Shown here: positions 27,732 to 32,539 of the stretch, piece after piece
How positions within the stretch are numbered: position 1 is the stretch's first letter
Layout: each line of letters starts with the position of its first letter
From: Candidatus Latescibacterota bacterium
GTDB taxonomy: Bacteria > Latescibacterota > UBA2968 > UBA8231
Length of the DNA: 64,000 nucleotides
Assembly (NCBI GenBank): GCA_964291625.2
Contig: OZ220089.1
Span: 1,792,001-1,856,000 of the forward strand
Reading direction: 5' to 3'
Translations under genes and position numbers: made by a program
The notes under the pieces: model-generated
The model's database searches: none
Told to the model about the DNA's origin: nothing
Seen by the model: the letters and a program-made list of their open reading frames with translations, nothing else

Positions 27732-27760
27732 AGGACGACTGAGCGCCCCTCAGTCGTCCT
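27732..27760 (-). terminator. Perfect 12-bp hairpin overlapping the stop of precursor A
   Basis: AGGACGACTGAG-cgccc-CTCAGTCGTCCT; no clear U-tract. Confidence 0.5.
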
Positions 27761-27983
27761 CCTCCTCCGGACAAGGGTCAGCCTCACAGGTACTGACACA
27801 CGAACCGTCGCCTGCCGAGCAGACGTCTTCGGTGGCCGAGGACATCACGCACGCAGTGATCTGCTTGAAACACGGCACACTCTCATAGACGATTGTAGTC
27901 ACCACCCAGGATAGGTGCTCCTCCGAGTAGGCAAGGACCGCGTGGTTGCGCCTTGCAGGCGACTTTTTTGTGAGGGCTCTCAT
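27750..27983 (-). CDS. Putative RiPP precursor peptide A (77 aa, 6 Cys)
   Basis: GGGAGG RBS then ATG; MRALTKKSPARRNHAVLAY|SEEHLSWVVTTIVYESVPCFKQITACVMSSATEDVCSAGDGSCVSTCEADPCPEEEDD; paralog at 32321-32539. Confidence 0.8.
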   Translation of the reverse strand: MRALTKKSPARRNHAVLAYSEEHLSWVVTTIVYESVPCFKQITACVMSSATEDVCSAGDGSCVSTCEADPCPEEEDD

Positions 27984-28063
27984 TGGAGATGCCTCCCTTT
28001 TGAGTAGAGGATGATGAATGATAACTCTAGGTTTCAATTTGAAACCTAAGAAGTTGAGGGTTG

Positions 28064-29248
28064 CTAACCCCCGCGTCCTGAAGCCAAGGCAATTCCGTAC
28101 AGTTCGATGGTCCCATTGGAGATCTCTGACTCTTCTTCTGATGGAGGTCTCCAAATACAAAGCTGATCCTCCCAAGCTGCAATCCTGTTCCAAGGCGCGT
28201 GTACGGCCAACGGGCGGATACGCTCCTCCCAATCTGGAGTAAGACCGTACACCTTGATTGTCGACGCCCCATCCCCTTCAAGGTCGTAGATAGCCCATCC
28301 TCGGTCCGTGGCGTGAAGAACAAGTAGGTATCTATCTTGGAACAAAGTCATTCTCCTCAGGAGAGTCATCCCCGAACTCATCAATTCAGTCATCAACTCC
28401 CTGGTGCCAGTACCAACATCGTGGAATCGCCCAGGTAAGGGAGTAAACCCTTCGGGACGGAAGCCAAACCTTCTTGTGATCTCTCCTGTAGCGGCGTCAA
28501 TCTCCTTTACATGGTATTCATTAACCCCCAAGTAGTACAGCCGATGCCGGGAGGTGCTGTAACACAAGTGATACAAGCGACCCAGCCGAGCCGCTAGAAA
28601 CCGATCTCTGTCCGTGGAAACAGGAGTCTGATAGCTCATCTCCCAAGTCTTGGGATCAAGGCGCGACACCGTCACGTAACGCTCCCTTCCCAACACAAAC
28701 AGCTCTCCCTCCCGTCCGGTTAAGACACGTGTATCATCATAGCCTGTCCATTGATCCAAGTAACTTCCAAGCCGATCATATCGGATGACACCCGCAGTGT
28801 GTAGAAGGTAAACGAAACCGTTAGGAGGATCCATGGAAATAGCAAGCGGTGAAGTATACTCACCCGGCCCGGCCCCCTTCCTCCCAAATGACCGAATGTA
28901 GCGTCCGTCAAGCAAGCTGAATTCATGTGCCGCTTGGCCAACCCCATCAACGAGCAACAAGCTGCTGTCAGGGGATACGCTCATCCAATCCACCGATCCG
29001 ATGGCTGGCGCCTCTTCGTCCAAGGCCAGTTCGACCTGGCCGTGGAAGATTAGACCAATCTCGCCTGCGGGTTGTACCGGCGTCTCCAGAATGCTGGATT
29101 CATCGACCCCCTCTACTGGGCCGCTGACGAGCACCCAGGCGAGCACCAGAGTTCGGACGTATGAAAGCACCTTATTCGCAACGCAACTCCGGGATGGCTG
29201 ACCAGATCGCCGATTGTGGCGATCGGAGGGGAGAGGGAGATATCTCAT
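28064..29248 (-). CDS. Secreted 6-bladed beta-propeller protein, copy A
   Basis: Signal-like N-terminus; 'SFGRKGAGPGEYTSP' motif typical of 6-bladed/NHL-like propellers. Confidence 0.8.
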   Translation of the reverse strand: MRYLPLPSDRHNRRSGQPSRSCVANKVLSYVRTLVLAWVLVSGPVEGVDESSILETPVQPAGEIGLIFHGQVELALDEEAPAIGSVDWMSVSPDSSLLLVDGVGQAAHEFSLLDGRYIRSFGRKGAGPGEYTSPLAISMDPPNGFVYLLHTAGVIRYDRLGSYLDQWTGYDDTRVLTGREGELFVLGRERYVTVSRLDPKTWEMSYQTPVSTDRDRFLAARLGRLYHLCYSTSRHRLYYLGVNEYHVKEIDAATGEITRRFGFRPEGFTPLPGRFHDVGTGTRELMTELMSSGMTLLRRMTLFQDRYLLVLHATDRGWAIYDLEGDGASTIKVYGLTPDWEERIRPLAVHAPWNRIAAWEDQLCIWRPPSEEESEISNGTIELYGIALASGRGG

Positions 29249-29326
29249 ATGGGATCGTAATCCTGACTGTTAAGGGATGTAGGGGTCAATACCCCTGGAC
29301 GCTCACCGTCCACTTTTCACATGCTG

Positions 29327-29406
29327 AGTATAGCGCCACAGCGCGACCCAATCCAATAGACGCATCTTTGGTAGTCGCCTTGTGAAACTATGATTTCCGC
29401 CTTGTG
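29327..29406 (-). promoter_or_regulatory. Putative sigma70 promoter with two 22-bp-spaced boxes (copy A)
   Basis: TTGGAT-18bp-TATACT on the minus strand; CGCCTTGTG at 29376 and 29398. Confidence 0.55.
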
Positions 29407-29454
29407 CAATGTCGAGTTTCTCCTCTAATCGCTCGCCCCAGATTCTCGTTGGAA

Positions 29455-30330: not shown

Positions 30331-30800
30331 GGAGCAGAAGGGCTACCAGACCCACTACCTGCTCATCGGCGTCGAGCTGCTGCACCGGCTCACCGGGAGG
30401 GAGGACGTGGCCGCCGCCTACGTGCGGGCCGTGCACTGGTTCTGCGGCGGCCCCGGGTCCACGAGGCCGCACTTCGCCCTGTCGCAGCACTACTACGGGA
30501 TCGTCTGCCGGCACCTCGCCTACGCTTGGCGCCTCACGGGGCACCGGCCCTACCTCCAGATCGCCCGGGCCGTCCTCGAGCGGCTCATGGGGATGCAGGA
30601 CTGGAGCGGCGCCCAGACGAGGCGGGGCTCCGTGGGCATGAGCCCCATGGGTCTGAGCCTGCTGTTCTTCGGGGTCCCATGCCTGCTGGAGGCGCTGGCC
30701 GAGGCGGGGATGGAGGAGCCGGGCGGCTGGCCTCAGGGGACCCGCCGCGAGGCCGGCGGGGCCTCGGCGAGGAGGAAGCCCGGCTCGTCGCCGTCCTGGA
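30331..30800 (+). pseudogene. 5'-truncated hypothetical protein fragment (alpha/alpha toroid-like)
   Basis: High-GC coding-like frame QKGYQTHYLLIGVELLHRLTG...LAYAWRLTG begins right at the IS end. Confidence 0.45.
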
Positions 30801-30801
30801 A

Positions 30802-31266
30802 CTATGGCTCTCTGGCTTCGGCCGAAGCTTTGGCAATCGCGACTATCTGGGTGGCATCCAGAAGCCTGGGCAAATCATGGTCCAGGATTACAGAATAGAA
30901 CCCTTGCAGCACTTGGCGGTACTTGACTAATAGAGGCTCAGAAGACCTGAGGTCTCGATTCCTGAACTCCGTGAACAGATCCATTTTGTTGATAATGAAG
31001 TCGGCAATGCTGAGATGGCTGGCCTCAGAGTGGGTCTCGAAGCCTCGGAAAACGAGCCCATTCGACAAAGGCGTCTCACTCCTCACCAAACTCTTTTCCT
31101 CTTCGGAGAGGCGGCAGTACGAATCCTCAAGGAAGCGGCACACCTTTAGCACTTCAAAGACCTCATCAACTCGGCTCTGGTTGTGCAGATGGACGATCAG
31201 TCTCTCTCGATCACTGATGCTTGCGTCTGGATTCTCCCTCGAGTAGCTGGAATCTCCCTTCAGCAA
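30802..31266 (-). CDS. YfbU-like protein
   Basis: AGGAGG RBS + TTG; VFEVL...SY..LSEEEK...FRGF....EASHLSIA.F...F.NRDL...YRQVL matches the YfbU pattern. Confidence 0.6.
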   Translation of the reverse strand: MLKGDSSYSRENPDASISDRERLIVHLHNQSRVDEVFEVLKVCRFLEDSYCRLSEEEKSLVRSETPLSNGLVFRGFETHSEASHLSIADFIINKMDLFTEFRNRDLRSSEPLLVKYRQVLQGFYSVILDHDLPRLLDATQIVAIAKASAEAREP

Positions 31267-31462
31267 GAGACCCTCCTTTGAGCGTTCCGTCGTGGTCTCC
31301 CTGGCGTGCCTCACCGGCGTTCGCGCAGCCGTCGGGCGTAGGGGGTCTCGATGCCGTACCGGCGGCACAGCCGGCTGAAGCTGCGCGGCTCGATGCCGAG
31401 GGCCCGGCTAGCGGCCTCGTTCGTCGAGTACATGCGGGCGGCTCGCTCGACGCGGCCCCGCT

Positions 31463-31830
31463 CCATCAAGCGTTCTCCCTGGACCATGGCTTATCCCCGT
31501 CAGAGTTGTCCTGCCGAGACAGACGACGGCTCGGACAAGGATCTTTCCTCAGAGTCCGCCCCAGCGCCGATGGCCGGACAGCTTTCGAAGAGAGCCAAGG
31601 CCTCTTCCTCCAAGGCCGCGATCTCCAGAAGGCGGTCGTGCAGTCGCTCCAGTATTGACTCCGTCGCTTTCACATGACCCTTCAGGCAGAGGTTTCTCAG
31701 GACGAGCCACTTCTGGGTAGTCCTCCGAAGCTGGTCCCCCACCTGCGTGAGTCGCGAATCTCCCACAACCTGAGCTGCCGCCCCGAGGTACTTCCCATGC
31801 CGATGTCGCTCTATCACCACGTTTCGCATT
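31463..31830 (-). pseudogene. 3' fragment of a second BtrH-like gene
   Basis: Near-identical to about 13114-13480 (QMRNVVIER..HGKYL...LLEIAALEE). Confidence 0.85.
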
Positions 31831-32320
31831 TGAGAAAGCTTCAGAACACGGGGCGCAACTTCCTTCTGCTTCGGACGGCTCGGCCCCATCGCGACGCTCC
31901 GGCCCGGCCCGGACCAGCACGAGAGCGGGTCAACTCCACACCGGGCGCCCCCTGACAGGAGCCTACGAGCAACCGACGTACGAGAAGCTCCAAGCCATCC
32001 CTGGAAGGGGCCTGAAACCGGGCTTGGCCTTTGTCACAGCTTGGGTGCCACGGCTCTGCTCGACCGAATGGGCTGGGGCAAGCCCTGCAGAGCCAGAACT
32101 CGGCTTCAAGATAGCTCGCGATATGAGGGGGCTGACCCCTACTCACCGCTGTGCTGGGCTGTTTCAAACTGAGAATGGAACTTTGCTGACCTGTCCCTGC
32201 CTCCCCTGCTGGCGCCGGAACGCCAAACTCGGACCGGCGGGGGTGACGAGAGTTTAGATTATGTCCCTCCGAAAAAAGCGCTTAAGGAGGAACAGGCGTA
32301 GCAGGGGATCGTCGTCGTCG

Positions 32321-32539
32321 CTAGTCGTCGTCGCAGGTGGACTCCAGACCCAAGTCGCCTGCGGTGCAACTGTCCTCCTCGAAATCCGAGGACAAAACGC
32401 ACATAGTATGCACTTTGACGCACCCGGTTTCGGGATCAACAAAAGGCTCACCAACTGCTATCCAGCCCGTATGTTCATCAGTGTAGGCAAGGACCGCGTG
32501 GTTTCGCCTAGCAGGCGACTTTCTGGTGAGGGTTCTCAC
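32321..32539 (-). CDS. Putative RiPP precursor peptide B (72 aa, 4 Cys)
   Basis: AGGAGG RBS then GTG; MRTLTRKSPARRNHAVLAY|TDEHTGWIAVGEPFVDPETGCVKVHTMCVLSSDFEEDSCTAGDLGLESTCDDD. Confidence 0.8.
   Translation of the reverse strand: MRTLTRKSPARRNHAVLAYTDEHTGWIAVGEPFVDPETGCVKVHTMCVLSSDFEEDSCTAGDLGLESTCDDD

Follow-up and report, generated by a model that had tools for sequence, protein, structure and literature searches.

Do two short open reading frames (ORFs) hidden on the minus strand of a 64,000-nucleotide stretch of Candidatus Latescibacterota DNA (GenBank assembly GCA_964291625.2, contig OZ220089.1, positions 1,792,001 to 1,856,000; this whole stretch is called the window below) encode precursors of ribosomally made peptides that are modified after translation (RiPPs), and what would process them? 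An earlier note, made from the letters of the DNA, had proposed two such precursors, here called peptides A and B, each joining a nearly invariant leader to a variable cysteine-scaffold core. Our analysis confirms the observation of two hidden leader-bearing peptide ORFs; by sequence comparison they are genuine genes with the proposed starts, and they belong to an unnamed family that occurs mainly in Latescibacterota. We consider it likely that both are leader-processed precursor peptides, and have low confidence in any particular chemistry. The features on which this answer turns are:

27750 to 27983, minus strand: precursor peptide A; ATG start, 77 amino acids (aa), 19-aa leader ending in AY, conserved ExxxW, acidic core with six cysteines
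27986 to 27997, minus strand: Shine-Dalgarno region of peptide A, GGGAGGCATCTC
32321 to 32539, minus strand: precursor peptide B; GTG start, 72 aa, core with four cysteines
32543 to 32553, minus strand: Shine-Dalgarno region of peptide B, GGAGGCATCTC

Both peptides are nested, as had been claimed, in longer spurious ORFs that open with TTG (27750-28232, 160 aa, and 32321-32866, 181 aa) and reach back into the 3' part of the propeller genes that lie upstream (described below). The proposed starts, ATG at 27983 and GTG at 32539, are supported by the Shine-Dalgarno-like motif before both (GGAGGCATCTC lies a few bases 5' of each) and by the 29 database proteins that align with the peptides from residue 1; such a motif precedes all 17 starts that we inspected, namely those of 13 family members, peptides A and B included, and of four other core types. 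The two 19-aa leaders differ only by A3T and K6R, so that 16 of the 18 non-initiator positions are identical, and a leader-only hidden Markov model (HMM), run over the 80,592 six-frame ORFs of at least 30 aa in the 5.9-Mb genome, matched peptides A and B, with E values of 1.4e-12 and 9.7e-11, and nothing else, the ORF ranked after them having E 5.4. BLASTP aligns the full peptides with 37 identities in 72 positions (E 4e-22). The cores diverge, with indels, to about 36% identity (21 of the 58 post-leader residues of peptide A are kept in peptide B), yet the motifs EHxxW, CxKxxTxCVxSS and EDxCxAGDxxxxSTC survive as invariant columns of the pairwise alignment. The even cysteine counts to which the earlier note drew attention are real in this pair (six in A, four in B) but are no rule of the family: an even number is found in 29 of 40 members, an odd one in 11, and exactly four cysteines in 23.

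The family itself was recovered by protein searches. A word-index search returned three proteins: P0001, which is peptide A; P0006, which is 67% identical to it; and P0005, which stands for 4 member sequences on 2 contigs and has a 52-aa core identical to that of peptide B, a different leader region and an M start of the ATG type. When 1,835,955,588 representative proteins were searched with a profile built from 14 peptides, 30 were retrieved at E<=1e-3, and 29 of these are 62-82 aa long and match from residue 1. In an alignment of 40 sequences M1, L4, Y19, W26 and C55 are invariant and K6, A18 and C45 nearly so, and the mean pairwise identity is 46% over residues 1-19, 30% over residues 20-26 and 15% over the rest; among the five members of the clade with the window's leader the corresponding values are 89%, 50% and 28%. 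The conserved leader with a variable core, which had been put forward as the RiPP hallmark, is thus a feature of the family (46% vs 15%) and of the clade (89% vs 28%). Cores of the A type (P0006, P0013) and of the B type (P0005, P0014) occur elsewhere under the same leader. The core part of the profile (positions 34-75) also matched a protein of 1617 aa, P0019, in 16 stretches (E 1.7e-7); this may be a Cys-rich repeat protein akin to the core scaffold, or composition may account for the match.

What surrounds the peptides in the window? Each lies downstream of a propeller gene and a response-regulator gene, an arrangement that we call a cassette, and a set of putative processing and export genes follows cassette A:

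34018 to 34656, minus strand: intact response regulator of the NarL/LuxR type (Pfam Response_reg and GerE), upstream of cassette B
32601 to 33791, minus strand: propeller B, paralog of propeller A (81% aa identity)
31500 to 31889, minus strand: what is left of a second BtrH/DUF4872 gene (Pfam DUF4872 fragment); lies downstream of peptide B
29626 to 29997, minus strand: paralogous response regulator upstream of cassette A, truncated (Pfam Response_reg only)
28064 to 29248, minus strand: propeller A, a secreted NHL-type six-bladed beta-propeller, DUF5128-like (Pfam DUF5128, 24.9 bits)
26665 to 27749, no strand assigned: 1.08-kb spacer with no convincing gene; a thioredoxin-like (Trx-like) gene occupies this slot in other family loci
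24865 to 26664, minus strand: ATP-binding cassette (ABC) exporter with transmembrane and nucleotide-binding domains (Pfam ABC_membrane, ABC_tran) and no C39 peptidase domain
22979 to 24868, minus strand: fusion of an S8 subtilase with a TIGR04066/DUF1611-like part, 629 aa (Pfam Peptidase_S8, DUF1611_N, DUF1611)
14806 to 15189, minus strand: acyl carrier protein (ACP)-like protein (Pfam PP-binding, 36.4 bits); start codon uncertain
14204 to 14809, minus strand: o201, a conserved 201-aa protein with no Pfam or NCBIfam match
13149 to 14330, minus strand: BtrH_N/DUF4872 protein with a C39-like fold (Pfam)

The start of the fusion gene overlaps the stop of the ABC gene (ATGA), and downstream of it come, in order, HlyD, two AcrB-type genes, the ACP-like gene, o201 and the BtrH_N/DUF4872 gene. 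The subtilase part of the fusion has an intact D/H/S triad, and the protein has neither signal peptide nor prodomain, since it begins directly at the catalytic Asp motif. In NCBIfam the ABC exporter matches subfamilies of bacteriocin and type I exporters without reaching the cut-off of any, and the BtrH_N/DUF4872 protein has a weak DarH-like NCBIfam match and resembles AziU3 in the Protein Data Bank (PDB; E 9.6e-6). Propellers A and B have 394 and 396 aa. The AlphaFold2 model of the 394-aa protein (mean predicted local distance difference test 83.5, predicted template modelling score 0.81) has as its best PDB match 4raa, a protein that B. fragilis exports, with NHL domains next in rank, and homologs of the propellers have Sec or lipoprotein (lipobox) signals. 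A prediction of the propeller-peptide complex gave a median score of 0.20, the mark being 0.32, and carries no weight either way.

Are the peptides found with the same partners elsewhere? A search with the fusion protein retrieved 30 loci on genome contigs, 26 of them from Ca. Latescibacterota/Latescibacteria, 2 from Gemmatimonadota/Gemmatimonas and 2 from Firmicutes, and tblastn comparison of these revealed a recurrent cluster of response regulator, propeller, small ORF, Trx-like protein, ABC exporter, fusion, ACP-like protein, o201, BtrH_N, HlyD and two AcrB. Eleven of the loci have a propeller; HMM searches of six-frame ORFs located an intact family precursor beside it in 10 of these, nearly all ten from Ca. 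Latescibacterota, and no family peptide in the 19 propeller-free loci. The expectation that homologs would lie near S8 and BtrH genes is thereby borne out, since intact members occur in 10 of the 30 fusion loci: all 10 have the fusion and the ABC exporter, both downstream of the peptide, and 8 have a BtrH_N-like gene. It is the adjacency that is conserved and not the order, because the peptide gene precedes the propeller in L030, L033 and L057. Pairing is not strictly one to one; L057 has two family peptides, and L032 two propellers and one recognised peptide. In L035 the cluster is degraded, with a precursor (8871-9008) truncated after about 21 residues and an ABC gene (8980-9963) that matches residues 47-374 only.

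The other components of the cluster have wider or patchier distributions. An ACP-like gene homologous to that of the window stands beside the fusion in 23 of the 30 loci, and o201 is matched by tblastn beside fusion, ACP and BtrH genes in L029-L031, L033-L036, L044 and L057, with a separate match in L032. The Trx-like protein (about 230 aa, with an N-terminal transmembrane helix, a CQPC motif and no Pfam match) is encoded between the precursor and ABC genes, as in L036 (7073-7762), with homologs in L029, L030, L032-L034, L037, L038, L048 and L057 and also in L045, L046, L049, L050, L052 and L056; no precursor was recognised in the loci that have this gene and no propeller (L045-L047, L050, L052). 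A radical S-adenosylmethionine (rSAM) enzyme, sought by tblastn with that of L054, is present in 4 of the 30 loci (L037, L038, L054, L058). In two of these, Latescibacterota loci with a family precursor, the rSAM/SPASM gene lies just upstream of the propeller (L037, 2000-3361; L038, 2479-3840), and the precursors have three cysteines and a Trp/Tyr-rich tail. Beyond the family, fusion homologs are accompanied by an MxxLxK...AY head (MxxLxK...[VI]xAY in L040, L051 and L053) on hydrophobic, Gly/Ala-rich cores (L040, 3720-3953; L039, 1621-1872) and on a 119-aa protein (L051, 8796-9152; L053, 8758-9114). Because the same head opens such unlike precursors, the leader head goes with the protease/TIGR04066/ACP/ABC module and the cores with the accessory genes.

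How did one genome come to hold two copies? The peptides sit at the edge of a segmental duplication of about 2.1 kb (27916-30087 vs 32472-34747, 83-85% nucleotide identity), whose unit comprises the response regulator, then the 394/396-aa propeller, then the leader, and some of the leader similarity was therefore inherited with the block. As the earlier note had supposed, the leader is better conserved than what lies around it: over 67 nucleotides its two copies are 87% identical, and it is flanked by a spacer with a 20-nucleotide indel and by a core saturated at synonymous sites. By the Nei-Gojobori method, leader codons 2-19 differ by 3.0 synonymous and 2.0 non-synonymous changes (proportion of synonymous differences, pS, 0.209; of non-synonymous differences, pN, 0.050), propeller genes A and B give pS 0.207 and pN 0.092, and core codons from 27 to the end give pS 0.661 and pN 0.428, this core pS being somewhat inflated by alignment uncertainty in the indel-rich core. 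Fisher tests on synonymous divergence gave p 0.0097 for leader against core and p 1.1e-6 for core against propeller. The proposed comparison of leader and core substitutions points to purifying selection in the leader, and the contrast between these two copies is partly historical. Because the pS of the leader equals that of the propeller and the pS of the core is far higher, leader and duplicated block are of one age and the cores are alleles of much greater age, and this junction of young and old sequence at the leader/core boundary suggests that recombination or gene conversion stopped there, and that leader selection was not the only cause.

Cassette B has no machinery of its own, as only the BtrH remnant lies downstream of peptide B; its cluster has lost the ABC exporter, the fusion, the ACP, o201 and the 5' part of BtrH, and positions 31463-31833 are 93% identical to 13114-13482, the 3' end of the first BtrH gene. 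This last pair is one of several further duplications of 93-97% identity (10697-12823 vs 35095-37220; 9937-10050 vs 34935-35048; 13114-13482 vs 31463-31833), which include a sigma-54 activator paralog besides the BtrH 3' fragment and suggest that there were two cluster units in tandem and that one of them was afterwards gutted. The G+C content falls to 0.55 across both propeller cassettes (28001-30000 and 32001-34000), in surroundings of 0.62-0.71, and the cassettes may be foreign. The regulator of cassette A lacks about 68 nucleotides relative to copy B in the repeat alignment. Plus-strand ORFs at 29404-30003 and 33973-35262 were considered as a divergent gene and rejected as antisense shadows of the response-regulator genes. 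We likewise rejected a 176-aa ORF (26719-27249) as a gene of the cluster, given its spurious composition, the absence of a homolog in the other loci and the absence of a family match; the ORFs of the spacer 26665-27749 in general are Pro/Arg/Gly-rich, look spurious in composition and have no tblastx match to the other loci.

Two RNA folds were seen near peptide A:

27727 to 27764, minus strand: stem-loop of about 16 pairs, without a T-run, that overlaps the peptide A stop codon

Its minimum free energy is -37.6 kcal/mol, with z -2.33 and an equally good fold in 3 of 200 shuffles, and no comparable signal was found 3' of peptide B (z 0.01). A hairpin of 9-10 bp at 28027-28049 on the minus strand, in the gap that separates peptide A from propeller A (z -3.0; 1 of 200 shuffles as good), is not present in copy B, where 20 nucleotides are missing. 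No RNA run was found that covers window positions 27600-29300, a result that is neutral as to expression.

Among 41 relative genomes the S8-DUF1611 fusion occurs in 30 at E<=1e-20, often in several copies, and a close propeller ortholog only in G002, of the same genus (91% identity). No family peptide was found in G002, which lacks the equivalent of window positions 23084-28063 (peptide A, the ABC exporter and most of the fusion) and of 31671-33953 (cassette B); since the last ~113 nucleotides of the fusion gene are kept, the first gap is a deletion. In contigs of three other runs the match ends exactly at the propeller stop codon, beyond which these contigs continue with the same sequence as G002. 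We looked for an 'orphan immunity' signature in the G002 propeller and set it aside, its ratio of non-synonymous to synonymous rates (0.40) being the same as in other pairs and uninformative. The genome under study also has a second S8-DUF1611 fusion outside the window (G000, C1:3456341-3458227), which shares 48% identity with the one described here and has orthologs in G002, G004, G006 and G007.

Which known system does this one resemble? The leader had been likened to that of CLI_3235-type bacteriocin precursors (TIGR04065), a system whose TIGRFAM models were reportedly first described by Haft and Basu in the Journal of Bacteriology in 2011. In the Bacillota locus L054, a protease-DUF1611 fusion is found with an ACP, a PapB/QhpD-like rSAM/SPASM enzyme and a Cys-rich precursor of 50 aa, which starts M-V-K-I-L-N-K-K and has V-V-A-Y at residues 17-20. 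It is this context, together with the same MxxLxKK...AY shape, that upholds the likeness, but TIGR04065 matched none of the 14 family peptides tried, and the link between the leaders is one of motif and context, not of statistics, because a profile-profile alignment (hhalign) of the 40-sequence family with the L054 precursor gave a probability of 5%. Those passages of PMC4573289 and PMC10731318 that treat the Firmicute clusters describe them as rSAM TIGR04068 with TIGR04066, ACP-related TIGR04069, a subtilase and an ABC transporter; the five-gene set is known in Roseburia according to the relevant part of PMC4573289, and in that of PMC10731318 SacP23 of Paenibacillus polymyxa is a CLI_3235-family precursor of 61 aa with a predicted 19-aa leader. 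In the window, too, short Cys-rich precursors are clustered with genes for a subtilase, an ABC exporter, a TIGR04066-like domain and an ACP-like protein, this last recognised through Pfam PP-binding and a tblastn search with the L054 ACP, and the leader agrees in shape and in length (about 19 aa, as in the prediction for SacP23 in that part of PMC10731318). It differs in phylum (Ca. Latescibacterota), in having the subtilase and the TIGR04066-like domain in one polypeptide, in lacking a linked rSAM maturase and a TIGR04065 score for its precursors, and in its extra genes: the secreted propeller, the Trx-like CQPC protein (in other loci), BtrH_N/DUF4872, o201 and resistance-nodulation-division (RND) efflux genes.

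Other comparisons are partial. With ranthipeptide/QhpC-type systems, in which the rSAM enzyme PapB or QhpD forms thioethers and the subtilisin-like QhpE is the leader protease, the window shares an S8 domain whose best NCBIfam match is QhpE and which is cytoplasmic and without a prodomain, cores rich in Cys and Asp/Glu, and, through its relative L054, a PapB/QhpD-like rSAM enzyme; unlike them, it has a QhpE score below the cut-off of 165 and no dehydrogenase context, and a QhpD/PapB homolog was found neither in the window nor in 8 of the 10 family loci elsewhere. Class II double-glycine bacteriocins also have a short leader, an ABC exporter of their own and a response regulator close by, whereas here the leader has no GG motif, the ABC exporter has no C39 domain, and cleavage would fall to a separate cytoplasmic subtilase. 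The exported six-bladed propellers of Bacteroides (DUF5128/TolB_like/DUF4934; 4raa, BF0058) are the best fold and Pfam matches of our propellers and are likewise exported or of lipoprotein type, but share only 14% sequence identity with them; they presumably neighbour small peptide genes. A literature search found nothing that joins DUF1611 with RiPPs and, among the papers listed, nothing relevant on DUF1611 itself, nothing evident on this system for Latescibacterota RiPPs, and nothing relevant under ranthipeptide, ACP and subtilisin. The system is best described as a variant of CLI_3235-type maturation that is associated with a propeller and mostly does without an rSAM enzyme.

Several results weigh against reading peptides A and B as leader-processed precursors with such a maturation system. 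The peptides match no Pfam or NCBIfam family. The suggested score against TIGR04065 came back empty for both at E<=10 and for all 14 family members tried (0 of 14), as it did for the L054 precursor at E<=0.1, HMMER filters discarding most matches above E ~0.1 in these scans; the hhalign comparison mentioned above covered 20 columns at 40% identity. Both domains of the fusion score under their curated cut-offs (QhpE-like NF049966, 149.4 bits against 165, for the protease; TIGR04066, 'peptide maturation system protein', 114.7 bits against 200, for the C-terminal part). tblastn with the L054 rSAM enzyme found none in the window, where a ranthipeptide or sactipeptide cluster would have an rSAM/SPASM maturase, the sole match of the genome to TIGR04068 (CcpM), at C1:555588, lies more than 1.2 Mb away, and no linked enzyme with demonstrated core-modifying activity is present in the window. 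The Trx-like gene, present in 10 of the 10 other family loci, is absent from the window and was not found in the genome with this query. Conservation extends beyond AY to the invariant Trp at position 26, and the cleavage site could accordingly lie elsewhere than after AY. Finally, by sequence comparison the system is dispensable while the propeller is retained intact, since G002 and the contigs of three other runs have lost peptide A, the ABC exporter and most of the fusion.

One alternative is that the peptides are genuine without being RiPPs in the strict sense, that is, unmodified, disulfide-stabilised secreted peptides, bacteriocin- or pheromone-like, whose N-terminus is only a signal for export and cleavage, with the ACP, o201 and BtrH-like proteins serving another product. 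In its favour, no core-modifying enzyme can be assigned in the window; the membrane-anchored CQPC Trx-like protein of other family loci suggests simple oxidative folding, 23 of the 40 members have four cysteines, HlyD and two AcrB genes separate the ACP/o201/BtrH trio from the fusion in the window, and a response-regulator gene precedes each cassette, as in pheromone or bacteriocin loci. What cleavage and export alone hardly explain is the association of a TIGR04066-like domain and an ACP-like gene with the protease in 23 of 30 loci, across phyla; the related systems with rSAM maturases (L037, L038, L054, L058) and the odd cysteine count of 11 of the 40 members also speak against unmodified peptides, and we regard this explanation as possible though on the unlikely side. 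That the ORFs are untranslated, and that the duplication carried a conserved non-coding stretch such as a propeller 3' untranslated region or a regulatory element, is in our view highly improbable. Chance ORFs do abound in a high-GC genome, and the missing Pfam and NCBIfam matches would fit, but 29 independently predicted small proteins agree in length, start and invariant residues, every start inspected (17 of 17) has its Shine-Dalgarno-like sequence, the leader substitutions are codon-like, and Rfam gave no match within 12000-38000 at E<=0.1. The reversed order in L030, L033 and L057, where the peptide precedes the propeller, moreover shows that the peptide gene is not a propeller 3' untranslated region.

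A further alternative concerns peptide B and the contrast between leader and core, which might be an accident of the duplication boundary, with copy B a decaying relic instead of a second functional precursor. The equality of pS in leader and propeller (0.209 and 0.207, with 0.66 in the core) is what this would predict; peptide B starts with GTG, its cluster has been stripped of ABC exporter, fusion, ACP and o201, with only a remnant of BtrH, without its 5' part, left behind it, and G002 lacks cassette B entirely. Yet peptide B retains a Shine-Dalgarno sequence, an open frame and every family-invariant residue, and its core is maintained, because P0005 carries the identical core over 52 aa; P0014 has the B-type core pattern under the same leader. 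The contrast is moreover a property of the clade and not only of the duplication, since its five members average 89% identity in the leader and 28% in the core. We therefore think it unlikely that copy B is a relic and the contrast accidental.

Taking peptides A and B as leader-processed precursors, how might the system work? The basic N-terminal segment, MxxLxKKxPxRRxxxxxAY, would be the handle recognised by a conserved cytoplasmic module made up of the S8 subtilase-TIGR04066/DUF1611 fusion, the ACP-like protein and the ABC exporter. The subtilase would remove the leader, most likely after the invariant Tyr19. Subtilisins favour large hydrophobic P1 residues, and cleavage at this point would fit that preference, Tyr19 being also the last position common to all core types. 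The Cys-scaffold core would then be exported by the ABC transporter, fold, perhaps oxidatively, outside the cytoplasm, and meet the secreted NHL-type propeller encoded next to it; the predicted topology, with the protease cytoplasmic and the propeller extracytoplasmic, is compatible with such a division. Peptide B would be processed in trans by cluster A, as its near-identical leader would allow. Further modification, for example acyl transfer by way of the ACP and BtrH-like proteins, may follow, and the mature product may act as a competition or signalling peptide. A bolder version, which we advance tentatively and hold to be rather doubtful as a whole, sees here an rSAM-free branch of the CLI_3235 type in which one cytoplasmic 'cut-and-cap' enzyme cuts the leader with its S8 domain, its DUF1611 domain, the ACP and a BtrH-like transferase then modify the new N-terminus or the core, the propeller is the core's cognate extracytoplasmic partner (immunity protein, receptor or folding scaffold), and propeller and precursor form swappable cassettes. 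If this were true, new cores could be joined to one shared leader through recombination at the leader/core junction, and relatives without the biosynthetic genes would keep an orphan propeller.

For the biology of these systems, the loci show that the poorly understood TIGR04066/ACP/subtilase module is modular, one leader head being shared by several core types that are unrelated to one another, in the presence or absence of a radical-SAM enzyme, and the propeller-precursor cassettes, together with the mosaic at synonymous sites, suggest how core diversity arises. The window also offers a testable substrate-enzyme pair for DUF1611, a domain of unknown function. Genes of this kind are mistaken by gene callers for long spurious ORFs in high-GC genomes, and the present family, about 30 clusters at 50% identity with no Pfam or NCBIfam model, enlarges the RiPP-like repertoire of a candidate phylum that has no cultured producers.

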